44,316 nt of DNA from Gemmatimonadota bacterium (GTDB lineage: Bacteria > Gemmatimonadota > Gemmatimonadetes > Palauibacterales > KS3-K002). A program made the translations under genes and the position numbers. Of the stretch, positions 10,473 through 29,848 are shown piece by piece. The number at the start of each line of letters is the position of its first letter. Position 1 is the stretch's first letter. The notes beneath the pieces were generated by a model that saw only the letters and a list, made by a program, of their open reading frames with translations, was not told the origin of the DNA and ran no database searches. The stretch is taken from assembly GCA_039586795.1 (NCBI GenBank), contig JBDHJS010000041.1, positions 1-44,316 on the forward strand, written 5' to 3'.

Positions 10473-12353
10473 ATGAGTGGAATTACCGGAGTGATCTTCG
10501 AGCACACGAGACCAGACCTCGCTTCTCTGGTAGACTCGATGTCATCGACGTTGCGGCATCGGGGGAGCATTGAGGAGAGAGTGGTGCTCGAAAACCGGAT
10601 CGCGTTGGTGGCAAGAAGCGATCAGGACGCCGGCTACCGGTCGTATCAATGGGATGATCCTGAACAAGTCACGGTGTTTGATGGTTGGCTGTCGAACGCG
10701 CACTACCTGGGTAAGCGTTATGGCGTTGTAGATACATCCAACCACGCCGGGGTTGTAGCCGCCGGATACAAAGCAGACGGAATCGACATAGTCAAGAAGC
10801 TCGAAGGTAGCTTCGCGCTGTTGATCCTGCATCGTGATGGCAGCGACAGGGTGGTTCTCGCGCGGGACATGTTTGCGAGTCGTCCACTGTACTACGCGGT
10901 CCAAAATGGGTGCTTGTGGTTCGGCACCGAAGTCAAGGCCATTCTGCAGGACCGAGCGTTCAAGAGAGAAATCGCCAGCGAAGCGTTTTCTCAGATACTC
11001 GCTTACGGAACGTCCGTCGGTCCGGAGACGCCATTCAAGGACATGTGGAAGGTCATTCCGGGCCAGTATGTGACGGGCATCGCCGGGCAGCGCTTAAGCG
11101 CCGAGTGGTACTGCGTGCAGGATGATCCGCAAGTGCGTGACCGAAAGGAAAGCGAGTGGGCGCTCGACATCTGGGATACCCTGGTCGAGACAGCGGGTCA
11201 GCACTGCCTTCGGTGCCCCGATTCCGGCATACTGCTCTCCGGTGGAGTGGACTCGTCATTGATCGCGCTGGCGGTTGCGGAAAGCACCTGCAGACACGCG
11301 TCGGCGATCAGTGTTGGTTCGCCGAACTGGAGCGACGACGAGACGGAATACGCTCGGGAAATCGCGTCGCACTGCGGCCTGAGGTCTCAAACGATCAGAA
11401 TCGACGCTGACGACAAACTTCTCGACGCGCTTGTCGGAGCGATCTGGAAGCTGGAAGAGCCAACCCGATTCTATAACGCCATCCCTCTGGAGTTCGCGGT
11501 TACCAAAAACGAGGGTAACCTGCGCGCGTTCTTCACTGGTGAAGGTGCAGATATGATGTTCGGTAGCCCGGCCCACGAGCAGGCGGCTTGGATCCTTCGG
11601 CTGAACAGTCTTCCTGGGTGGGCATCCAACGCGCTCCGCAACCTTCCGTCGATCGCCCATCGCATTCCGCGCTTCGGCCAAGCCCTCAGGAACCTCCAGC
11701 GAATGCACACGCGGTTTGATTCGATTCAGACGTTTGCCGTGAGGGGCCACATTTTCAATACGGAGATCGTCGGACCCGACGTTGAAGGGGCGGTGCCGGC
11801 GCATGTGCATGACCTTGCGGCGCGCATCGCCGGCTGGCCGGCCGATATCCAGACCACCTTCATCATCCTTCTCGGCCTGGCGTACAACTGGAATGAGCGG
11901 TTCGAGAAGATCGGCGCCTACAGCCAGATCGACATGTTTCACCCATTCTTCACGCACGAGATGCTGGCGTTGAGCAAGCAGATGCCGGTGAAGCACAAGG
12001 TGAAGGATCACAAGGGCAAGCCGCTTCTGAGAAAGATAGTCGGGGACAGGCTGTCACCGGAGGTGCCGCGCCGGCGGAAGATACAATTGTCGGCGCCGAT
12101 GTGGGCGTGGTGGACGGAGTCGAGCGAGTTGCGTGATGCCGTGATGCAACTGAGAGATCCTGCCAGCCCGGTGCGCGAGTTTCTAAACGTGAAGGCTATG
12201 GACGGCGCATTGAAGGAGTATGAAGCCGGCAAGGTAGAAAACGCACGGCTTTCCAGGATGTTGTTCATCATGTTGGGTCTCGATCTGTGGCTCAAGATGT
12301 TCGCCGACGGACAAGATGTGGCCCGGCTGAATGGATCGCGCCCGTCAAGATGA
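10473..12353 (+). CDS. Asparagine synthetase B-like amide ligase 1 (N-terminal Cys replaced by Ser)
   Basis: MSGITG, HRG, LARD..RPLYY, PP-loop LLSGGVDSS, TGEGAD, KPLLR, RRK. Confidence 0.85.
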   Translation: MSGITGVIFEHTRPDLASLVDSMSSTLRHRGSIEERVVLENRIALVARSDQDAGYRSYQWDDPEQVTVFDGWLSNAHYLGKRYGVVDTSNHAGVVAAGYKADGIDIVKKLEGSFALLILHRDGSDRVVLARDMFASRPLYYAVQNGCLWFGTEVKAILQDRAFKREIASEAFSQILAYGTSVGPETPFKDMWKVIPGQYVTGIAGQRLSAEWYCVQDDPQVRDRKESEWALDIWDTLVETAGQHCLRCPDSGILLSGGVDSSLIALAVAESTCRHASAISVGSPNWSDDETEYAREIASHCGLRSQTIRIDADDKLLDALVGAIWKLEEPTRFYNAIPLEFAVTKNEGNLRAFFTGEGADMMFGSPAHEQAAWILRLNSLPGWASNALRNLPSIAHRIPRFGQALRNLQRMHTRFDSIQTFAVRGHIFNTEIVGPDVEGAVPAHVHDLAARIAGWPADIQTTFIILLGLAYNWNERFEKIGAYSQIDMFHPFFTHEMLALSKQMPVKHKVKDHKGKPLLRKIVGDRLSPEVPRRRKIQLSAPMWAWWTESSELRDAVMQLRDPASPVREFLNVKAMDGALKEYEAGKVENARLSRMLFIMLGLDLWLKMFADGQDVARLNGSRPSR

Positions 12354-12429: not shown

Positions 12430-14316
12430 ATGAGCGGCATTGCGGGAGTGGTCTTCAAGCAACCGAGGTCGGAAGTACCTGCGACGCTCAATCGGATGTC
12501 GTTGGCGCTGAAGCATCGAGGCAATGACGAGGATCGATTTGTTCTTGACGACCGCATCGCTCTCGCGACACGTGGTGAACCAGACGCTGGATACCGGGCC
12601 TGCCTCAACGATGACAACGAATACATCACGGCGTTCGACGGCTGGCTCTCAAACAGCGACGAGTTGATAACGAGGTACGGACTGGAAGCTTCCGCGGATT
12701 TCGCCCGGATCGTAGCGGCGGGGTATCGCGCTGATGGCGAAGGGGTGTTTGCCAAACTGCGGGGGAGCTTCGCGCTCGTCATCGTTCGCCGGGATGGGAG
12801 CGATGAGGTCCTGCTGGCGCGGGATCTGTTTGCGGGTCGCTCTTTGTACTACGCGGTGCAAGGAGAGCGTCTGTGGTTCGCCTCTGACATAAGAGCGATT
12901 CTCAAGGATCCCACGTTCAACAGAGACGTCGCGGTCGACGCGCTTCCTCAGATCATGGCGTTCGGGGCCAGCATGGGGCCAGAAACGCCCTTCAAAGATG
13001 TGATGAAGGTCATCCCCGGACAGTGGTTGAAGGGCGTACCGTGGCGACGGTTGGGATACGACTGGTTTTGTCTTCCGGAGAATCTGGACATCGCCAACAA
13101 GAGCGAGAGCGCCTGGGCTCGCGACATATGGGGTGATCTCAACGAAGCCATCCTGAGGGACAACGGATTGTCCCGGGGGGCGGGCGTGATGCTGTCAGGC
13201 GGAGTGGATTCCTCGCTGCTCGCCCTGGCGCTTGCCGAAAGCAAGGGAAGGGGCCTGCCGGCGGTCACGATAGGGGCTCGTGATTGGAAGAACGACGAGA
13301 CGATACCGGCGTGCGACGTCGCGAACCATTGTGGGCTCGTCCATAGACCGGTCTACATCGCACCGGATTCTGGAGTGCTGGACGCGCTGGCGGAAGCGAT
13401 CTGGAGACTCGAGGAGCCGACTCGGTTCTACAACTCGATTTCGCTGAGCATGGCGCTCGATATCCTGTCCGGCGAGCTGCGCGGCCTGTACACGGGAGAG
13501 GGCGCGGACTTGCTGCTGGGTAGTCGAAGCAGCGAACGAGGCCACTGGGTACAGCGGTTGAACAGCCAGCCGAGGTGGATCGCGAGTAGCCTTCGAAACA
13601 TCCCGGACTTCATGCTCAAGGCCCCACGCATCGGGTCCGTGGTGGGCAATCTCCGGCGAATGATCCGACAGTACGACTCGGTCGCGGATTACACGTACAA
13701 CAGTTTTCTGTTCAATCCGGAGATCTTGAACCCGCCGTATGAAGTGGTGCTGCCGCCTCATTTGCAGGAGCTGCAAGAACGCGTGAGCGAGTGGTCCGGC
13801 GATGTGCAGGATATGCTGCTCAACATGCTTGGCCTAGGCCATTGCTGGAATGAACGCTTTGAAAAGATCGGCGCCCATTCACGGATCGACGTATTCAATC
13901 CGTATCAGACGCACAGCCTGTTTCGGTTGGGCCTTCAGATGCCGTTGAGAAGGAAGTACTCGAGACGCGGCAGCAAGCCCGTGCTCAGGCGTATGGTGAG
14001 CGAGAAGATTTCGCCGAGCATAGCACGGCGACGCAAGATACAGTTGTCGGTGCCGATGCGATCGTGGTGGAACGAGTCGAACGATTTACGCGCGGCAGTC
14101 TCTGCCCTGAAAGATCCCAACAATCGTGTGCGAGAGTATCTCGATGGAGAAGTGATGGATCGTGCCCTCGAGGAATTCGAGTCTGGCCCGGTCGATAACG
14201 CATGGCTATCGAGGAACCTGTTCAGCATGGTCGGCCTGGATCTCTGGCTGAGGACGTTCATCGACACACAGGCCCCTTGTCGGCTCGATGTGTCGAATGT
14301 TGGTGTAGGTGCATGA
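12430..14316 (+). CDS. Asparagine synthetase B-like amide ligase 2 (paralog; N-terminal Cys replaced by Ser)
   Basis: MSGIAG, LSGGVDSS, TGEGAD; colinear with the upstream paralog (shared AIWxLEEPTRFYN, WNERFEKIGA, RRRKIQLS). Confidence 0.85.
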   Translation: MSGIAGVVFKQPRSEVPATLNRMSLALKHRGNDEDRFVLDDRIALATRGEPDAGYRACLNDDNEYITAFDGWLSNSDELITRYGLEASADFARIVAAGYRADGEGVFAKLRGSFALVIVRRDGSDEVLLARDLFAGRSLYYAVQGERLWFASDIRAILKDPTFNRDVAVDALPQIMAFGASMGPETPFKDVMKVIPGQWLKGVPWRRLGYDWFCLPENLDIANKSESAWARDIWGDLNEAILRDNGLSRGAGVMLSGGVDSSLLALALAESKGRGLPAVTIGARDWKNDETIPACDVANHCGLVHRPVYIAPDSGVLDALAEAIWRLEEPTRFYNSISLSMALDILSGELRGLYTGEGADLLLGSRSSERGHWVQRLNSQPRWIASSLRNIPDFMLKAPRIGSVVGNLRRMIRQYDSVADYTYNSFLFNPEILNPPYEVVLPPHLQELQERVSEWSGDVQDMLLNMLGLGHCWNERFEKIGAHSRIDVFNPYQTHSLFRLGLQMPLRRKYSRRGSKPVLRRMVSEKISPSIARRRKIQLSVPMRSWWNESNDLRAAVSALKDPNNRVREYLDGEVMDRALEEFESGPVDNAWLSRNLFSMVGLDLWLRTFIDTQAPCRLDVSNVGVGA

Positions 14317-22127: not shown

Positions 22128-23732
22128 ATGATCAGATCGAGATTCGTCCCGAAGCTGTTGTTCGCCACCATACTCGCTCTCTCGTCGCCGGGATCTCTGC
22201 CGGGACAGGATGGAGCTAGTTCCGCCGACCTCATGACGAGGCCGGAGCGGACTGGATTCGAGGAAACGAGTCGCTACGCCGACGTGATGAAGTTCGTCAA
22301 GCAAGTTTCGTCGCAAGCGCCCTGGATCCACCTGACGACGATGGGCTACACGCTGGAGGGACGATCGCTGCCGCTGGTCGTGGTTGGCGATGTCGCGGAC
22401 GCGAGCCCGGAGGCGGTTCTGGCCTCGGGGAAACTGCGCCTGTACATAGGCGCGAACATCCATGCGGGCGAGGTGTGCGGCAAAGAGGCGATGTTGATGT
22501 TGCTCCGCGAGCTGGCCAACGGCTCGCACGCGGAGTGGCGGGAATCGATGGTCTTGCTCATCGCCCCGATCTACAACGCGGATGGTAACGAGCGGATCAG
22601 CCTGACCAATCGCCGAGGCCAGCACGGACCCCTCGCCGGGATGGGGCAGCGCGCGAACGCCCAGGGGCTGGACCTGAATCGGGACAACATGAAACTGGAG
22701 TCGCCCGAGGCGCGATCGATGGTGGCAGCGTGGAAGCGGTACGATCCCCACATCATAATGGACCTGCACACGACGAACGGGACGCGCCACGCTTACTTCG
22801 CGACCTACGCGCCGCCGCTGCATCCGAACACGGAAGCTGGGATCATCGATCTGGCGCGTGGGGACATGTTGCCAGAGGTCACCCGAGCGCTGAAGGCGAA
22901 GTACGATTGGGATTACTACTACTACGGCAACCTGCCATGGCGCGGCATGGACGTCGAGCGCGGTTGGTACACGTTCAGTCATCAGCCGCGGTTCCTGACA
23001 AACTACGTGGGTATGCGGAACCGCATCGGACTGCTCAGTGAAGCCTACTCTTACGCGACGTTCGAAGATCGCATACAGGCCAGTAAGCGACTTGTAGAAG
23101 AGGTGGCCAACTACGCCCACGACAACGCTCATCAGATCGCGCGGGCGATCCAGCAGGCGGACGAGACAAACATCGTCGGCCAGACGCAGGCGCTGCGCGC
23201 CACGTTCGAGAAGGCGCCCGAGCCTGTGGAGATCTTGATGGGCGATGTGGCCATGGAGCGGAACCCGTACTCTGGGCAGCCGCTGCTGCGGCGATTGGAT
23301 GTGCGGGAGCCGGAGATGATGGCTGAATTCGGCACGTTCGCGGGGACGGAGACCGAGACCGTGCCGGAGGCGTACCTGATACCGGGGAATCTCAGGAACG
23401 TGCTGAACGTGTTGGCCGATCACGGCGTGGAGTGGACGGTCTTGGAGGCGGATGAATCTATGGTGGTAGAGCGATTTGCCATCGATTCGACGCGGACGTC
23501 TCAGCGGGAATACCAGGGGCACAATCAACGGACGGTATTTGGGGAGTACGAACGGGTTGAGGTTAGTGTCGCTGCTGGGACGGTGGTGGTGCCGGTGGAG
23601 CAGGCGTTGGGGAGGTTGATCTTCTTGTTGTTGGAGCCGCGTTCGGATGATGGGCTCTTGAATTGGAACTTCTTTGATGGCGTTTTGGAGGAGGAGCCCG
23701 AATTCTATCCGGTCACGCGAGTGCGCGGTTGA
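22128..23732 (+). CDS. Secreted M14 family zinc carboxypeptidase
   Basis: Start MIRSRF at 22128; signal peptide; IHAGE, NADG, DLNRD, DLHTTNG motifs. Confidence 0.9.
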   Translation: MIRSRFVPKLLFATILALSSPGSLPGQDGASSADLMTRPERTGFEETSRYADVMKFVKQVSSQAPWIHLTTMGYTLEGRSLPLVVVGDVADASPEAVLASGKLRLYIGANIHAGEVCGKEAMLMLLRELANGSHAEWRESMVLLIAPIYNADGNERISLTNRRGQHGPLAGMGQRANAQGLDLNRDNMKLESPEARSMVAAWKRYDPHIIMDLHTTNGTRHAYFATYAPPLHPNTEAGIIDLARGDMLPEVTRALKAKYDWDYYYYGNLPWRGMDVERGWYTFSHQPRFLTNYVGMRNRIGLLSEAYSYATFEDRIQASKRLVEEVANYAHDNAHQIARAIQQADETNIVGQTQALRATFEKAPEPVEILMGDVAMERNPYSGQPLLRRLDVREPEMMAEFGTFAGTETETVPEAYLIPGNLRNVLNVLADHGVEWTVLEADESMVVERFAIDSTRTSQREYQGHNQRTVFGEYERVEVSVAAGTVVVPVEQALGRLIFLLLEPRSDDGLLNWNFFDGVLEEEPEFYPVTRVRG

Positions 23733-23812
23733 ACATTGATCATGGCACATCCATCATGGAACACTTTTGGTAGCGTTCCGTGATGGATGTACCGTGCATG
23801 CCCAATGTTCAA
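23729..23812. repeat. Long imperfect inverted repeat made of degenerate heptamers between convergent genes
   Basis: TTGAACA TTGATCA TGGCACA TCCATCA TGGAACA pairs with CGTTCCG TGATGGA TGTACCG ... TGCCCAA TGTTCAA. Confidence 0.7.
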
Positions 23813-25839
23813 TGTGCACTTCGCCAGTCCCAGTGGTCGCCAGCCCGCCGGATAACCCACACAACATCCTCTTCTAGTAGCACTCTCTGCTCGACCAGCG
23901 ACACCGCTGCCCGCTCGACCTCTCTGAGATAGTGCTCCTTGCTGTCGTAAAGGCTTTCGATGCTCGGGCGCGGATCGTTGGTGGCCTGTCGCTCCGCTTC
24001 CGTCTTTGGCAGCGGGACGTACGTGCCCAGGAAATCGGTGAGCTCGTCGGTGCCGCCGGGATAGCCGATTCGCAGGTTCCACGGCAGGTACGTGGCGATG
24101 GGCGCCAGGATTTCGATCGCGCGCAGACCGGCGACCTCGTTCCCAAGCTCGTCCACTTGCGACACCAGCGAAGGGAAGGGGACGCCAAGTGTGGGTGGCT
24201 CGACGTCGATGATCCCCTCCGTCCACCACCGGGGTCCGTAGCCGACGCGGTAGGCTTCGTGGATCACGTCGGGATACTCGACGCCATCGATGCTCGGAAA
24301 GGCGACCTGATCGATGGGGACCAGGTTGCCATCGGCGAGTCGGGGATGAGCGCTGGGCGGCGGCTCGGTCCCATCGCTAACCCATTCTACCATTCGAACC
24401 AGCAAGGCCCGCATGGTCACCAGGAAGTTCAACGGGTTGCCGCGGTAAGCGCTATCATCCGACATCACGCTTTGATCGGGCGGCGGAAAGCGCCCGACGA
24501 AATGCTGGCCGCTGGCCAAGTGGTAGATCCTCTCGTTCGGATACAACTCTACATCGCGCTGGCCGTCGACGCTGACGTGCAATAGTGCCGCGGCGCGACC
24601 CCAGTACTCGTAGCCGGTGTTCGTGTAGAAGATCTTCGGCAGGTTCTCGTCCACGAACTGGTGGGCGAAGAGGCCGTCGGTGCGTCCGGTTTGCCAGTCG
24701 GTCTGCGTGCGGCTGGTGAACGGGAAGATGTCGGTCGGATAGAAGAACGCTGAATAGCGATGCGCATCGCGAGATGGCTGGGCGAAGCGATGGTTGAAGC
24801 TGCCCCGGCCGGCTCCGGCCGTGTGCACCATCACGCCGTCCAGAGCTTTGCGGCCTTCCTCGTCGGTGTTGAAGCCCTGGTAGATGTAGTGACGGAGAAA
24901 GCGCCCGGTCTGTGAGATGCCGATCGCGACGCCGTGGTCAACGGGAAACGGGCTGGAGGGATCGTACTTGGCGTACGATATCATGTCGCGGATCGCAGCG
25001 GGTCCGAGCCCAACGATCTTGGGGTCGGCCGCTGGGTAGACCAGCTCGTAGATCTTGCCGGGCTGAAAACCGGCTCTCATGAAGATGTGGGTCCGGTCAT
25101 CGACGACGTCGCCCTCCTCAACGCGACCAAAGCTCCACTCGCTCCGCGGCACGATACGGCGTTCGGCCAAACGACCGTCACGCTCCGTAAGCATCACCCG
25201 GGGGCTGTCTTTGTCTAGAACCGGGTAAGCGAGGTGGTTGCGGTGAGCGAGGTCGAGGACGTTGGTCGGCCGATCGACGGTCCAATCGGCTCGTACGACG
25301 CCGACGATCGGCTCGCCGTTTTCGCCCGAGGCCGCCGGAACGTGGAGGCGGAGCCGGCCCTCCTGCTGCGGGACGTCCCATTGCCATCCCACCCAGATGA
25401 CGGTGAGCCCGAGCCGCATGAGCAGTCCGTCGCCGAAGTGCTCGGCATCAGTAGGGTCGAAGCCGCCCGCGGTCGCCCGGTTGAAGTAACGGAGCGAGGC
25501 CTTGCCACCGCGGTTGCTGACTTCGAGCAGGGCGACGTTTCCGGCGGTCGGGTTCACGGGTCGCAGTACTGTGAAGTTCGCCCACGCTTCGACCAGCCCG
25601 TCGGCGTTACGCGGTGCCAGCTTCAGGTCTACGATCCGGGAGTTGTACGGGTTGTCGGGATCGAAGACGAAGTACACCTTGCCGACGAGCTTCTCGTACG
25701 GACCGATGATGCCGAACGACCGTCCGTCCAGAATGACTTCGCGGCTTTCGATCTCGACGCGAACGACTTTGGCCGATGCTATAGTCGTACAAAAGAGTAG
25801 CGCAAGAAGAAGCGCGACTGGTTTGTAGAGGCGTGTCAT
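23809..25839 (-). CDS. Secreted alpha/beta hydrolase domain protein (large Abhydrolase_10/tannase-like family)
   Basis: Start MTRLYK at 25839; signal peptide ending ASA; NRG, WVGWQWD, GISQTGRFLR nucleophile elbow, EYWGR, RPSIESLY. Confidence 0.8.
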   Translation of the reverse strand: MTRLYKPVALLLALLFCTTIASAKVVRVEIESREVILDGRSFGIIGPYEKLVGKVYFVFDPDNPYNSRIVDLKLAPRNADGLVEAWANFTVLRPVNPTAGNVALLEVSNRGGKASLRYFNRATAGGFDPTDAEHFGDGLLMRLGLTVIWVGWQWDVPQQEGRLRLHVPAASGENGEPIVGVVRADWTVDRPTNVLDLAHRNHLAYPVLDKDSPRVMLTERDGRLAERRIVPRSEWSFGRVEEGDVVDDRTHIFMRAGFQPGKIYELVYPAADPKIVGLGPAAIRDMISYAKYDPSSPFPVDHGVAIGISQTGRFLRHYIYQGFNTDEEGRKALDGVMVHTAGAGRGSFNHRFAQPSRDAHRYSAFFYPTDIFPFTSRTQTDWQTGRTDGLFAHQFVDENLPKIFYTNTGYEYWGRAAALLHVSVDGQRDVELYPNERIYHLASGQHFVGRFPPPDQSVMSDDSAYRGNPLNFLVTMRALLVRMVEWVSDGTEPPPSAHPRLADGNLVPIDQVAFPSIDGVEYPDVIHEAYRVGYGPRWWTEGIIDVEPPTLGVPFPSLVSQVDELGNEVAGLRAIEILAPIATYLPWNLRIGYPGGTDELTDFLGTYVPLPKTEAERQATNDPRPSIESLYDSKEHYLREVERAAVSLVEQRVLLEEDVVWVIRRAGDHWDWRSAH

Positions 25840-25905
25840 GAGGAGGTTCCTTCCGTGTTGGGTTGGGGCGGGGATAAGATTGGAGCGATTGGGGTGAGAC
25901 GCAAG

Positions 25906-25947
25906 TTGAACATTGAACATTGGACATGGTACATTGGTCACGGAACA
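25906..25947. repeat. Six degenerate tandem heptamers (TTGAACA family)
   Basis: TTGAACA TTGAACA TTGGACA TGGTACA TTGGTCA CGGAACA. Confidence 0.7.
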
Positions 25948-25992
25948 ACGACGTTCGGCTTCAGTGTTTGCGTGCTCTGAGAAGATGATAGC

Positions 25993-26367
25993 GTGCTCTA
26001 TAGACTAGCAGCCGATGCGGTAGTCTTAATCCACCTCGCGTTTGTGGTCTTCGTCGTCGCCGGGGCGCTGTTGGTACTGCGCTGGCCGCGCATCGCCTGG
26101 GTACACGTACCGGCTTTCGTTTGGGGAGCGCTGATCGAATTCGCGGGTTGGATTTGCCCGCTGACGCCGCTGGAGAACCGTCTGCGGATCAGTGGAGGAG
26201 CGGCAGGATACGAGGGCGGGTTCGTCGAGCACTACGTCATCCCCATCCTGTATCCGGGGAACTTGACGCGGGCCCTGCAGATCGGGCTCGGCGTTGCGGT
26301 CGTCTTGATCAACGCAGGTGTCTACGGCTGGCTGTTGATGCGCAGAGCACGGGCCGGAACCCAATAG
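25993..26367 (+). CDS. DUF2784 family membrane protein
   Basis: LAADAVVLIHLAFVVFV, CPLTPLENRLR, GFVEHY...LYP. Confidence 0.9.
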   Translation: MLYRLAADAVVLIHLAFVVFVVAGALLVLRWPRIAWVHVPAFVWGALIEFAGWICPLTPLENRLRISGGAAGYEGGFVEHYVIPILYPGNLTRALQIGLGVAVVLINAGVYGWLLMRRARAGTQ

Positions 26368-26385
26368 GGGGCAGCGAGGCGAGTC

Positions 26386-27075
26386 ATGTTCACGGGTGAC
26401 GCTGGCCAGCTCGATCGGACGGTCCGGCTGTATGTGTACGGTCATTTTCTCGAGCACGGCGGGCCTCCGGAAGCGGGTCAGATTGCCGAAGCGCTCCACG
26501 CGACGAAGAGCGCGGTTCGAGCTTCGCTCCATCGACTGGCCAGCGATCATATCCTGGTCATTTCCCCCGAAAGCGGTGCAATTCTGATGGCGATGCCGTT
26601 CTCGGCTTCACCGACGGCATTCGAGGTTCGCGTTGCCGAAAGCAGCTGGTGGGCGAACTGTGCATGGGATGCGTTGGGGATTCCGGCGATGCTGAACTGC
26701 GATGCCCGGATACGTGCGTCGTGCCCCGATTGCGGGGAAGAGCTTTCCATTGAGGTCGAGGACGGTACAGTCAAAGATAACGGCGAGATCATTCACTTCG
26801 CCGTGCCGGCCGCTCATTGGTGGGACGATATCTTCTTCACTTGAGGGACCATTCTACTCTTCCGGTCGGAAGAGCATGTGGACCGCTGGTGCGAGGAGCG
26901 GCGGATGCTGCGCGGCGCCACTGTGACACTCGAAACAGTCTGGCGAATGGCGCAGGTTTGGTACCACGATCGTTTGCGGCCTGAATGGCGGCGGAAGACG
27001 CCGGAGGAGGTGGGGGCGTTCTTTGCCGAACTCGGTCTCAGCTCAGATTTCTGGAAGTTGACGAGGAAGACTTAG
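26386..27075 (+). CDS. MerB-like (organomercurial lyase family) protein; predicted selenoprotein with Sec at codon 153
   Basis: ORFs 26386-26844 and 26878-27075 are in the same frame, separated only by TGA 26842-26844; wHTH-like N-terminus, MPFS, NCAWDA, CPDC, WWDDIFFT-U-GTILLFRSEEHVDRW; SECIS-like hairpin follows. Confidence 0.8.
26845..26884 (+). promoter_or_regulatory. Putative bacterial SECIS element
   Basis: CTCTTCC-GGTC-GGAAGAG perfect 7-bp stem (26857-26874); apical loop begins with G, 19 nt after the UGA. Confidence 0.72.
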
Positions 27076-27085
27076 CGGGTAGCGA

Positions 27086-29848
27086 CTAGAGTCCCAGCCA
27101 GTAGTTGACCTTCAGAATGAAAGCGTTCTCCGGCTCGATACCGCGGAGCAGATCCAGATCGCGGCTCAGGTCGAACGTGCCGGTGCCCACGCTGTTGCGA
27201 CGATTCTGCTGCCAGACGAAGAAGATGGTGGAGCCGGGACGATACTCCCAGCGCAACACCGCGTTGAGTCGCAGCGATTGGATGTTGAAGGGCTTGTCGC
27301 CGAACGAAATGTCCGTCTGGCCGTCCCCGTCCCAGTCGATGTAGCGAGTGCCATCGTACGTGCAGGTCCGCCCGTCCACGCAGGTGACATCCCCGTCCAC
27401 CTCCACCCCGGTGCCTTCCTCGAACACGTCGAACGCGAACGTCTCTGATTTTGCCAGCTGTTTGTAAGTCAGGTAATCGCCCGACGAGATTAGTGGCTGC
27501 GCGTACAGCTGCAGGGTGAGGTTTGTGTTGAAGGAGATATTCAGCCGCGTCTCGAAGGAGAACTCGTGCCGCTTGAGGTCGGAGAAGAAGTAGCGGTTTC
27601 CGTAAGTGGGTATGAAGCCGACGAAATCGCTGGTGGTGACATACTGGGCCGGGTCGACCTGTTGGCCATAGGCCGGTTCGAAGAACATCTCGATACTGGG
27701 TACGGGCCGGAAGCCGATACCCATGCCGACTTCCCACGCGTAGGCATCGCGATAGCGATTCTGGTACTCGAATTCCGGTTCGAGGAACAGCGGCCGGCGC
27801 CGGTCGGTGTTGAGCCGGAGGCCGAACTCGTAGGAAGAGGGGTCGATCATCAGCGGCCCACCACGGGTCTCGACGTCGCTCAAGACCTGTGGGTCATAGG
27901 TAGCGTTGATGTCAACGCCCCAGAAGTTATTGAACGTGAAGTCGCCGCCCAGCCGGAACATGCCCCCCTTATGCGCCTGCTGCCAGGAGTTCCACGAGAG
28001 TGGATCATCCAACGCCGAGTGTCGCCAGTTGTGGAAGGTGAAGAAGTTGATCCGGTAGCTGCGGAACAGCGAGCCGGGCGTGATCTCCCGGTAAGAGACA
28101 CGAAAGCCCGCGTCCAGCCGTTCATTCGATTGGGAGAAGCCGAGGTCGTTGACCTCGAAGCCTGGCGAGATCTGGCCCAGCCAGACGCCCCCGGTCCAAT
28201 GCTTGGCGCTGCGGCGCTCGAACTGCAGCCGCCAGTTGACGCCGGTCAGCGAAGTGGCTGTGGAGTCGACTTCCAGGTAGTCAGCGTCGGGCCGCTGGAA
28301 GTAGTGGGCACTGTTCCGCTGGATGCGGATCATGGCGACCGAGTCGCCGCGGACGTGGCTGCCGGCAAAGAAACCCCAGAGAGCCCAATCCCGGGAACTG
28401 GCGCCGCCGAAGTTGTGCTCGAAATCCAGCCCCATGCTATAGGCGTTGGCCGGCAAAAAGTTGAATTTTCCGTTACTGGGGAGATTGCGATTCGCGATCG
28501 TGAAGATACCGCCCACCGTCGAGGCGCCGTCTCGGAGGTCCTGCTGGGCCCGGAACACTCCATATTGAGCTGGCGGCTCCACCATGAACCTGACGGTGTT
28601 ACCGGTATTGTTGTTGTAGGCTAGCCCCGACTCCTTCTCGGTGAAGGCAGCCAGGGCGCCGATGGCCAAACCGCCGGCTGAACGACCAGTGACTTTTGCG
28701 GCCGTCATGATCGTCGTTTCTTGAGGCACCTGCTGGAACGACGCGAACGTCGGTACGGTGCCACGAGGCTCGCGGCCAATTCGCCGCGTGTAAAAGAGCT
28801 GGTTCTGCCTGCCCGACAGGCGGAACTGGAAGACCTGGCCGTCTTCGACGAAGAACGGTCTCCGCTCCGGGAAGAAGACCTCGAACTGCGTCAGGTTGAC
28901 CACGGCGGGATCGACCTCGACCTGGCCGAAGTCGGGATTGATCGTGGCGTCGAGGGTGTAGTTGGCGCCGAGTCCGTAACGGAAGTCGAGACCGACCCGG
29001 CCATTGGCCTGGCTGCCATCGAAGAACGGATCGCTTGGATCGGAAGGTCCGGTGTTGGCGCGGGCCAGGACGTAGGGCCGGAACTCGATTCGACGAGTGC
29101 CCTGCGGCAAGTGCAGGCCTTCGAGCTGGCCGAACACGCTTACCTTGCCGTGTTGAACGCGCGACTCGAGCGAAAAATACGTGTGCTCGGCGCTTACTAG
29201 ACGGCGACGTGAGAAGTTAATGCCCCACGATTGCACCGAGTCCTGGGCTATGTACCGCAGCTGTGAAAGCGGGATGCGAAGCTCCGCGTACCAGCCGGTC
29301 GAGTCGCGGTGCACGGCCGACTGCCAGATCGCGTCCCAGTTCTCATCCTCGCGCACGTCGTCGTACATGAAGACGTCGCGCTGCACGTTCGATGCGCTAA
29401 CACGAAACCTGTAACCGGTGCGTTTGTCGTTGTTCGAATCGAGAGAGAGCTCAAAGTAGTCGTAGGCACCGTTCTCATCGCGGCGAACGAGCTGAGTGGC
29501 GATGCGGTCAGGTTGTGGGTCATACATGAAAGCGCCGACATAGATCGCGCCTTCGTCGTACAGGACACGGACCTCGGTCGGCTGCTCCGCCGGCGCGCCT
29601 TCTACCGGCTCACCCTGAACGAAGCTCGTGGCCGGGATCGCTCTCTGCCAGGCGGTCTCATCAAGCCGCCCATCGATATTCACATCCGCTTCCCGGGTCG
29701 CCGCGACAACGGATGGCGTTGCGGGCGGGGCGTCGCCGTTGTCCCCGTTGGATTCGGTCTGGGCCGACGCCGACCGCACGCCAAGAAGCGCCGGCGCCAG
29801 AAGGACCGAGATCGTTAGGGCTTTGAATAGGGACGCCGAAGTCGTCAC
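27086..29848 (-). CDS. DUF5916 family outer-membrane protein with N-terminal CBM9-like domain
   Basis: Probable GTG start at 29848; signal peptide; IDGRLDE..W, ELRIPLSQLRY, NPDFGQVEVDP, FFPERRPFF, YTRRIG; beta-barrel C-terminus LKVNYWLGL. Confidence 0.85.
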   Translation of the reverse strand: MTTSASLFKALTISVLLAPALLGVRSASAQTESNGDNGDAPPATPSVVAATREADVNIDGRLDETAWQRAIPATSFVQGEPVEGAPAEQPTEVRVLYDEGAIYVGAFMYDPQPDRIATQLVRRDENGAYDYFELSLDSNNDKRTGYRFRVSASNVQRDVFMYDDVREDENWDAIWQSAVHRDSTGWYAELRIPLSQLRYIAQDSVQSWGINFSRRRLVSAEHTYFSLESRVQHGKVSVFGQLEGLHLPQGTRRIEFRPYVLARANTGPSDPSDPFFDGSQANGRVGLDFRYGLGANYTLDATINPDFGQVEVDPAVVNLTQFEVFFPERRPFFVEDGQVFQFRLSGRQNQLFYTRRIGREPRGTVPTFASFQQVPQETTIMTAAKVTGRSAGGLAIGALAAFTEKESGLAYNNNTGNTVRFMVEPPAQYGVFRAQQDLRDGASTVGGIFTIANRNLPSNGKFNFLPANAYSMGLDFEHNFGGASSRDWALWGFFAGSHVRGDSVAMIRIQRNSAHYFQRPDADYLEVDSTATSLTGVNWRLQFERRSAKHWTGGVWLGQISPGFEVNDLGFSQSNERLDAGFRVSYREITPGSLFRSYRINFFTFHNWRHSALDDPLSWNSWQQAHKGGMFRLGGDFTFNNFWGVDINATYDPQVLSDVETRGGPLMIDPSSYEFGLRLNTDRRRPLFLEPEFEYQNRYRDAYAWEVGMGIGFRPVPSIEMFFEPAYGQQVDPAQYVTTSDFVGFIPTYGNRYFFSDLKRHEFSFETRLNISFNTNLTLQLYAQPLISSGDYLTYKQLAKSETFAFDVFEEGTGVEVDGDVTCVDGRTCTYDGTRYIDWDGDGQTDISFGDKPFNIQSLRLNAVLRWEYRPGSTIFFVWQQNRRNSVGTGTFDLSRDLDLLRGIEPENAFILKVNYWLGL

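Follow-up and report, generated by a model that had tools for sequence, protein, structure and literature searches.

A gene on the forward strand of the window (the whole 44,316-nt stretch of DNA that was analyzed, from a Gemmatimonadota bacterium) almost certainly encodes a 229-aa selenoprotein of the MerB fold, in which an in-frame UGA would be decoded as selenocysteine (Sec) through SelB and the hairpin that follows the codon. Sec at the site of MerB Cys159 is already known from SaoL; judged by sequence comparison, the stand-alone, multi-phylum clade to which this gene belongs is distinct from SaoL and new to the literature examined. The features of the gene are collected in Table 1.

Table 1. 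Features of the Sec-MerB gene and its surroundings, in window coordinates
Feature	Coordinates	Strand	Remark
CDS, 229-aa MerB-fold selenoprotein (predicted)	26386..27075	+	public gene calls end at residue 152
In-frame UGA, Sec153, at the MerB Cys159 / SaoL Sec column	26842..26844	+	TGA in 80/80 loci; Cys in full-length homologs
Bacterial SECIS upper stem-loop, 7-bp stem, GGUC loop	26857..26874	+	overlaps codons L158-E163
Putative ribosome-binding site GAGG, 6 nt ahead of ATG	26376..26379	+	inferred from sequence
C92-x-x-D95, equivalent to MerB catalytic Cys96/Asp99	26659..26670	+	C in 148/148 and D in 147/148 TGA genes covering the column
C113-x-x-C116 knuckle, C113 equivalent to MerB Cys117	26722..26733	+	C113 in 135/149 and C116 in 108/149 TGA genes
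N-terminal winged-helix domain, residues ~6-69, as in MerB	26401..26592	+	LexA/GntR/DtxR-type matches, 60-66 residues, Z 8-10
Trp-rich C-terminal extension, residues ~192-225, beyond the canonical MerB end	26959..27060	+	alignment
DUF2784 gene upstream, 18 nt gap	25993..26367	+	local neighbor, not a conserved partner

Reading frame and recoding hairpin

The first-pass annotation had described two open reading frames that share one frame and are split only by a TGA, and translation confirmed this: 152 codons, the TGA, 76 further codons and a terminal TAG run on without a shift, giving a read-through product with WWDDIFFT*GTILLFRSEEHVDRW around the Sec codon (asterisk). It is very improbable that this UGA is something other than a Sec codon, be it a true stop (in a split gene with a restart, or in a pseudogene), a sequencing error, or a codon for Trp or Cys. 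An in-frame ATG no more than 8 codons past the TGA was present in 80 of 149 distinct TGA genes and speaks for a restart, but the window gene and 55 of the 149 contain no ATG, GTG or TTG within that distance, and in 147 of the 149 the open frame continued for 65-90 codons past the TGA. Since 77 of 123 of these genes also use TGA as their ordinary final stop, the genetic code is not reassigned, and a genome-wide UGA-to-Trp reassignment was ruled out. A 173-nt contig from another sample, ~99% identical, covers the TGA with no mismatch listed there, which argues against a sequencing error. Four RNA runs contained only 7-14% of the words, and the contigs from these runs were short and in part derived from other organisms. 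There was no Rfam match across 25700-27300; no sigma-70 promoter was found, and the single terminator-like match was at chance level.

Behind the UGA stands the perfect hairpin CTCTTCC-GGTC-GGAAGAG, which had been put forward for its G-initiated loop and bacterial SECIS geometry. It fits every term of the bSECIS model as given in the available part of PMC13188914: a loop of 3-9 nt (here 4 nt), a stem of 4-16 bp (7 bp), a G[G/U] loop start (GG), 16-37 nt of spacing (the loop begins 19 nt past the UGA) and a minimum free energy of <= -7.5 (-10.2 kcal/mol). Compared with shuffled sequences, a 44-nt segment gave a folding z of -2.64 (4 of 200 shuffles were equally stable), and longer segments gave z values of -0.5 to -1.4. 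In this GC-rich genome, a loose G-loop hairpin was found behind 4012 of the 39097 TGA codons that are flanked on either side by open frame, and 273 of the 39097 satisfied a stricter hairpin filter; a genome-wide hairpin scan was rejected as sole proof because it is too unspecific. The hairpin by itself is weak to modest evidence for Sec, and it is lifted above chance by the TGA found in all of the 80 best relatives, by frozen synonymous codons and by compensatory pairs.

Synonymous codon choice was compared in 110 distinct TGA genes against gene-wide background codon use. Leu158 was CTC in 76 of 77 genes (background 0.39), Arg160 was CGG in 103 of 110 (0.34) and Ser161 was TCG in 92 of 95 (0.35); divergence from the background exceeded 1.2 bits at these three positions alone and was <=0.55 elsewhere. 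Covariation was assessed in an alignment of the window gene and 78 of the 80 best loci (the two loci from unpublished genomes were excluded; 77 distinct rows), in which 93.5% of hairpin cells were paired, as opposed to 47-61% in slid controls with shifted partners. Ten hairpin cells had changed on both sides, a number that 0 of 500 shuffles attained, although kinship inflates such counts, and RNAalifold recovered the same hairpin core. At least four of the five core pairs together with the loop G were retained in 146 of the 149 distinct TGA genes and in 3 of 16 in-family Cys genes, so the conservation of the hairpin among TGA-containing homologs, which the earlier annotation had proposed to check, holds. 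By these sequence patterns, the SECIS hairpin is under selection.

Column 153 among relatives and the Sec machinery of their hosts

A scan of GTDB species genomes yielded 222 relatives, of which the best 80 were used (two of them, L031 and L040, from unpublished genomes); TGA stood at column 153 in every one of the 80. Their named hosts belong to the Gemmatimonadota, which include the closest relatives, and to the Acidobacteriota, Chloroflexota, Actinomycetota, Planctomycetota and Myxococcota. Phylum samples supplied further loci that span the column (43 and 54 loci, with a few repeats and one plasmid locus), and these carried TGA in 35 of 43 and 41 of 54 cases and TGC or TGT in the remainder. 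Neither TAA nor TAG occurred at this column in the loci read, which speaks against a plain stop. Among the genomes sampled, the gene was found in ~11% of those from Gemmatimonadota, 9% of those from Actinomycetota and 5% of those from Chloroflexota. Three TGA copies look damaged: L127 (G304) has a second in-frame TGA, L200 (G364) a frameshift after the hairpin, and L211 (G852) a frameshift near the start.

In the databases the family appears mostly as stubs. A protein collection search returned 799 matches at E 0.001, and among the best 120 of these, 112 stop exactly at residue 152 (a count that includes the window gene's own 152-aa entry, P0002), 6 have Cys and 2 have Trp at the column; Cys is thus present in 6 of the 8 full-length matches. 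The two Trp entries count towards a Trp reading of the codon, and gene calling under another code is suspected for both. GenBank NIN72461.1 and UCC83024.1 are 153-aa "hypothetical proteins." A profile search gave 4236 representatives at E 0.001, of which 313 remained at 1e-30; among the 149 new representatives that it listed, 69 end at residue 152 and 72 of the other 80 have Cys, a proportion that favors Cys forms because the profile was built mainly from them. The Cys/TGA pairs for which the annotation had suggested looking were therefore present, both in full-length homologs and in the further loci.

The genome itself (97.8% complete) contains selA, selB, selD and tRNA-Sec (selC), all above curated cut-offs, so the search for the four genes that had likewise been proposed came out in favor of Sec. 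A scan of this genome for strict hairpins with coding bias returned 10 sites, this gene among them. Two further sites are catalogued selenoprotein types, namely an AhpD/CMD-like CxxU protein (G000:C58:7138-7548, minus strand, L206) and a deiodinase-like protein (G000:C59:16171-16812, plus strand, L207; SYTUPPF), each with an in-frame TGA and a hairpin whose GG loop starts 20 nt and 17 nt after the UGA, respectively; the two other sites scanned against families had no match. In addition, selD (G000:C23:43593, plus strand, L005) has its own in-frame TGA, with a hairpin G-loop starting 17 nt after it.

The TGA form follows the distribution of selA. selA was present in 47 of 50 hosts (those of the first 50 of the 80 best loci; G022 and G031 are unpublished). 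In the sample of the own phylum it occurred in 34 of 34 TGA carriers, own genome included (background 245/301); in the Actinomycetota sample it occurred in 26 of 28 (background 204/301), counted without the center genome G008, an incomplete TGA carrier lacking selA (G368, G521 and G578 are unpublished); and in the Chloroflexota sample it occurred in 10 of 10, center included, and in 0 of 5 Cys-only carriers (background 151/201). Pooling the three samples gives selA in 70 of 72 TGA carriers; by comparison, it was present in 530 of the 730 other genomes (Fisher p 2e-7 against the TGA carriers) and in 6 of the 14 genomes with the Cys form alone (p 2e-6). Kin genomes are not independent, so both p-values overstate the significance. 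Distant matches and those not covering column 153 were placed among the others in this cross-table, two counted TGA carriers (L127 and L200) look damaged, and leaving out the unpublished genomes altered none of the co-occurrence conclusions. Five TGA carriers had no selA match, which would fit a UGA that is not read as Sec, but each of the five has selB, selD or tRNA-Sec.

Fold, site residues and kinship to SaoL and MerB

Pfam MerB (PF03243) matched residues 72-193, across the TGA, at E 2.9e-33 and 115 bits against a gathering threshold of 27. AlphaFold2, given a 117-row alignment, returned a model with pLDDT 97 and pTM 0.92, for which the first 11 Foldseek matches were all MerB (E 7e-11). With VIA-align, MerB2 (5C17) matched at Z 19.1 and rmsd 3.3 over 188 aligned residues and MerB (3F0O) at Z 16.2, and below MerB there were just winged-helix matches to the first 70 residues, remote non-MerB folds being judged from the Foldseek list alone. 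The N-terminal domain resembles the DNA-binding domains of LexA, GntR, DtxR and MntR, four Cys-form relatives carry a C-terminal LuxR helix-turn-helix, and a few database names read "transcriptional regulator"; on these grounds the protein could be a one-component sensor or regulator whose winged helix binds DNA while the Cys/Sec site senses a metal or an oxidant. We consider this improbable, since this domain is also part of canonical MerB and lies within the whole-chain MerB match, the surface-exposed residues of the putative recognition helix (40-47) vary, the median net charge of the domain is -1, and no regulated neighbor recurs.

Alignment to the E. coli plasmid MerB (Cys 96, 117, 159 and 160) placed C92 at Cys96, D95 at Asp99, C113 at Cys117 and U153 at Cys159, in keeping with the annotation's assignment of its NCAWD motif to Cys96/Asp99 and of the UGA to the Cys159-equivalent position. 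Alignment and fold together support C92, D95 and U153 as the putative MerB-type metal-binding triad. The flanks of C92 are unlike those of MerB, with N91 at Trp95 and W94 at Leu98, so the substrate pocket differs. A WWxD motif precedes Sec as a clade trait, and W192 and W223 were invariant across 65 Sec rows. Position 95 was Asp in 65 of 65 Sec rows and Cys in 22 of 52 Cys rows; the Sec forms thus retain the proton-relay residue. Arg160, whose codon lies in the SECIS loop, was invariant in the Sec rows and was Cys in 10 of the 52 Cys rows, and the RNA signal at this position may have displaced a ligand of a second, ancestral zinc-type site.

No NCBIfam model (June 2026) accepts the 229-aa protein. 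It scored 54.6 bits against a cut-off of 140 for NF040728 (SaoL), and 43 against 200 and 53.7 against 193 bits for the MerB models NF033555 and NF009710. SaoL is a MerB-like organometallic lyase selenoprotein of the SAO locus, with Sec162 at the MerB Cys159 position, according to the portions of its sources available (NF040728; Haft & Gwadz, bioRxiv 10.1101/2022.07.06.499078), and the remark that Sec-containing MerB-like families are known elsewhere is accordingly correct. As far as those portions describe SaoL, the two share the PF03243 MerB fold, Sec at the Cys159-equivalent column six residues ahead of a conserved Phe, the Cys96/Asp99 equivalents, database entries that stop at the UGA, and a function that is putative in both. 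The differences are several. SaoL has a CU dipeptide, whereas the residue before U in the 149 TGA genes was T in 133, N in 8, A in 5 and S in 3, and never C; the best E value to NF040728 among 117 clade members (3.4e-23) was weaker than that of a 100-bit, sub-threshold protein (1e-28); and the Trp-rich C-terminal extension belongs to the Sec-MerB clade. By the same partial sources, SaoL sits in a nine-gene ABC-transporter SAO locus and is known from 52 loci in anaerobic, Firmicutes-skewed hosts, whereas the clade gene is stand-alone and was found in the six phyla named above, from Gemmatimonadota to Myxococcota; an SAO locus was not seen among the window neighbors, nor was there a common neighborhood over 119-123 loci. 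Identity as SaoL was therefore rejected on the grounds of the NF040728 score, TU in place of CU and the lack of a conserved operon. The first-pass annotation had located any novelty in the subfamily, host and context: the subfamily is indeed distinct from SaoL, but the novelty is not host-specific, as the subfamily is large and spans several phyla.

To canonical MerB (EC 4.99.1.2; PDB 3F0O and 1S6L; MerB2 5C17) the protein is likened by the two-domain fold (Z 16-19) and by equivalents of Cys96, Asp99, Cys117 and Cys159, with Sec at the last. It differs from MerB in this Sec, in ~20% identity, in Asn at Trp95, in ~30 extra C-terminal residues and in the absence of a mer operon. MerB identity was rejected because the protein belongs to a separate clade, falls below the NCBIfam cut-offs and has MerA in few of its hosts (2 of 60, see below). 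A quick tree of 99 rows contained 46 Sec forms (45 of them random picks; row L160 is from an unpublished genome), 43 Cys forms, 6 MerB and 4 distant SaoL-like proteins that served as stand-ins, with no authentic SaoL among them. The 89 Sec and Cys members formed one branch (SH-aLRT 97) separate from the MerB and SaoL-like rows, and a single Sec clade was rejected (p-AU 0.0005), Sec and Cys forms being interleaved, which implies repeated Sec/Cys exchange. No true SaoL came up when metagenome contigs were queried with a SaoL-like sequence.

Cys-form members of the clade (P0005, P0007, P0123 and a Ralstonia megaplasmid "hypothetical protein") are full-length, 26-50% identical, and have the same C-terminal extension, with Cys at column 153. 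Unlike the Sec form, they have no UGA, rarely the hairpin and often Cys at position 95, and they also occur in genomes without selA. The Ralstonia gene (L151, NC_003296.1) is conserved in 98 Ralstonia plasmid records, hypothetical or unannotated, with C-x-x-C at 92/95. Several Cys forms are fusions, to LuxR helix-turn-helix domains (P0148, P0189, P0204 and P0211) or to GNAT, glyoxalase, PhzF or DUF3303 domains (P0133, P0155; P0154; P0174, P0192; P0144). A distant Cys-form MerB-like protein (L133:1514-2335, G277) carries a fused GDCCVxC (seleno)protein domain (NF041374).

Within the literature examined, which mostly did not extend to subscription journals, Sec-MerB is known as SaoL alone. SaoL is listed in the selenoprotein family table of a 2026 review (PMC13188914, available in part), and it also figures in the available parts of a 2022 review and of the deep-Sep supplement, which holds representative sequences; the SelCysML main text makes no mention of MerB, and the part of BSepDB's supplement examined contains no MerB rows. 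According to the part of its description available, BSepDB was built by running tblastn (E 0.01) with known families against >64,000 genomes, followed by iteration inside each lineage (PMC13326102). A SaoL-like stand-in matched the window gene at E 2e-10, its Cys aligned on the TGA; at this E value, BSepDB may already hold clade members under the SaoL label. Environmental merB surveys, as far as their available text describes, apply standard gene calling and then drop sequences without Cys159 (PMC12484752, PMC12874090, PMC8261052), a filter that clade members cut at the UGA fail by construction.

Genome context and proposed function

The window neighbors are DUF2784, alpha/beta hydrolase and DUF5916 genes. 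A functional link to the adjacent DUF2784 gene, which had been described as apparently co-transcribed, did not stand: DUF2784 lies upstream in 7 of 119 loci, all closely related, and near relatives have DUF2784 beside DUF5916 without the Sec gene. Among 20 relatives, there are three in which a single DNA match spans both DUF2784 and the Sec gene, TGA and hairpin included (one of the three has a frameshift near the start), and in G857, G858 and G861 DUF2784 lies near the end of the DUF5916 gene with no room for a Sec gene; the Sec gene therefore behaves as a single gene gained or lost. The absence of merA, merR and merT, at first reported for the window, extends to the whole genome (97.8% complete), where MerA, MerT and MerR had no match above cut-off and HgcA was not found; the genome has one PF03243 gene. 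Three MerA-like matches, none of which reaches the cut-off, were not accepted as MerA; the strongest has no C-terminal Cys pair, and the remaining two are next to 2-oxoacid dehydrogenase E2 genes. MerA passed the cut-off in 2 of 60 TGA hosts, with the best 22 candidates per genome scored. Over 119-123 loci no neighbor recurred beyond near kin, and nothing there pointed to mercury. The neighborhood clusters that did appear reflect lineage synteny: DUF2784 and DoxX each recurred in 7 loci, and TerB/YCII/DUF188 in 8-12 loci of near kin. A 41-locus neighbor cluster was discarded as an overlapping-frame artefact that vanished once overlaps were removed.

Some further observations concern the surroundings. 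A TerB-family gene lies downstream in 12 near-kin Gemmatimonadales loci (including L018, L020, L022 and L023), and GNAT, YCII and DUF188 genes are nearby in several of these, likely as plain synteny. A TGAACAT-like heptamer-repeat intergenic element, REP-like, lies at window positions 25907-25940 and 23730-23820; it recurs at 25 genomic sites, frequently as inverted pairs ~90-140 nt apart, and many copies in a same-genus genome. At 10473-12353 and 12430-14316, tandem genes that are asparagine-synthase-like by appearance stand beside GNAT-like and ATP-grasp-like genes, and by its sequences this group looks like a small biosynthetic or cell-surface cluster.

On balance, we lean towards a stand-alone, cytoplasmic MerB-fold selenoenzyme that acts as a C-metal (Hg-C) lyase or scavenger. 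SelB bound to the hairpin would bring Sec-tRNA to the UGA, and C92, D95 and U153 of the resulting 229-aa protein would form a MerB-type metal-binding triad. An organometal(loid), for example methylmercury, might then bind the selenolate and be joined by C92, after which D95 would relay a proton to the carbon, freeing the hydrocarbon and leaving the metal on the Cys/Sec pair. In the weakest step of this proposal, with no MerA at hand, the metal might be held as a tight Se complex, the protein being partly a sink, or be removed by cellular thiols. Hg-Se bonds are very tight and would slow turnover without a dedicated acceptor. With Sec at position 159, capture of organomercurials should be readier and release of Hg less ready, as would suit a scavenger-lyase whose hosts lack MerA. 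In MerB itself, as described in the available part of PMC4525700, the metal is bound by Cys96/Cys159, Asp99 relays the proton, and MerA or thiols remove the metal; selenoamino acids demethylate methylmercury chemically (PMC10114901, available in part), and merA is absent from 906 of 1795 merB genomes (PMC8261052, likewise). The ~20% identity to MerB, MerB model scores far below cut-off, the altered flanks of C92, a genome devoid of MerA, MerT, MerR and HgcA matches above cut-off, the rarity of MerA among the TGA hosts, the tightness of Hg-Se bonds and the missing mercury neighborhood count against a lyase, and the natural substrate may be an organometal other than mercury, as the first-pass annotation had allowed.

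A true selenoprotein without C-metal lyase activity is a possible but doubtful alternative, in which C92/U153 would be either a site that binds or chaperones a soft metal such as Cu, by analogy with the related NosL fold, or a redox centre of the selenenyl-sulfide type with a small substrate. The absent mer context and the near absence of MerA are compatible with this, as are the Cys found at position 95 in many Cys rows, which makes a multi-Cys site, and the fusions of Cys forms to GNAT, glyoxalase, PhzF and DUF3303 domains. The available parts of the literature add that a Ser99-bearing MerB variant binds Cu(II) (PMC8261052), that a duplicated treble-clef fold is common to NosL and MerB (PMC4999995) and that catalogued selenoproteins are mostly redox enzymes (PMC13188914). 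Against it stand the near-invariant Asp95 of the Sec forms, a residue needed for MerB protonolysis, the lack of a CxxU or UxxC motif, and the fact that copper or nos genes do not recur nearby.

Whatever its substrate, the putative lyase or scavenger represents a common selenoprotein subfamily that has no NCBIfam model, and its natural Sec/Cys pairs permit a direct test of the role of selenium at a MerB-type metal site. We regard it as tentative, and rather unlikely, that this second Sec-MerB family, far commoner than SaoL and tied neither to it nor to mer operons, truly cleaves methylmercury. If Hg-C bonds are cleaved, counts of methylmercury degraders among the phyla of soils and sediments would miss a large group, and the activity of that group would depend on selenium supply. 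If methylmercury is the substrate, microbes of soils and sediments would have a selenium-dependent demethylation route that stays hidden from any survey filtering on Cys159, and the family would be a candidate cause of mer-independent demethylation and of part of the environmental antagonism between selenium and mercury.
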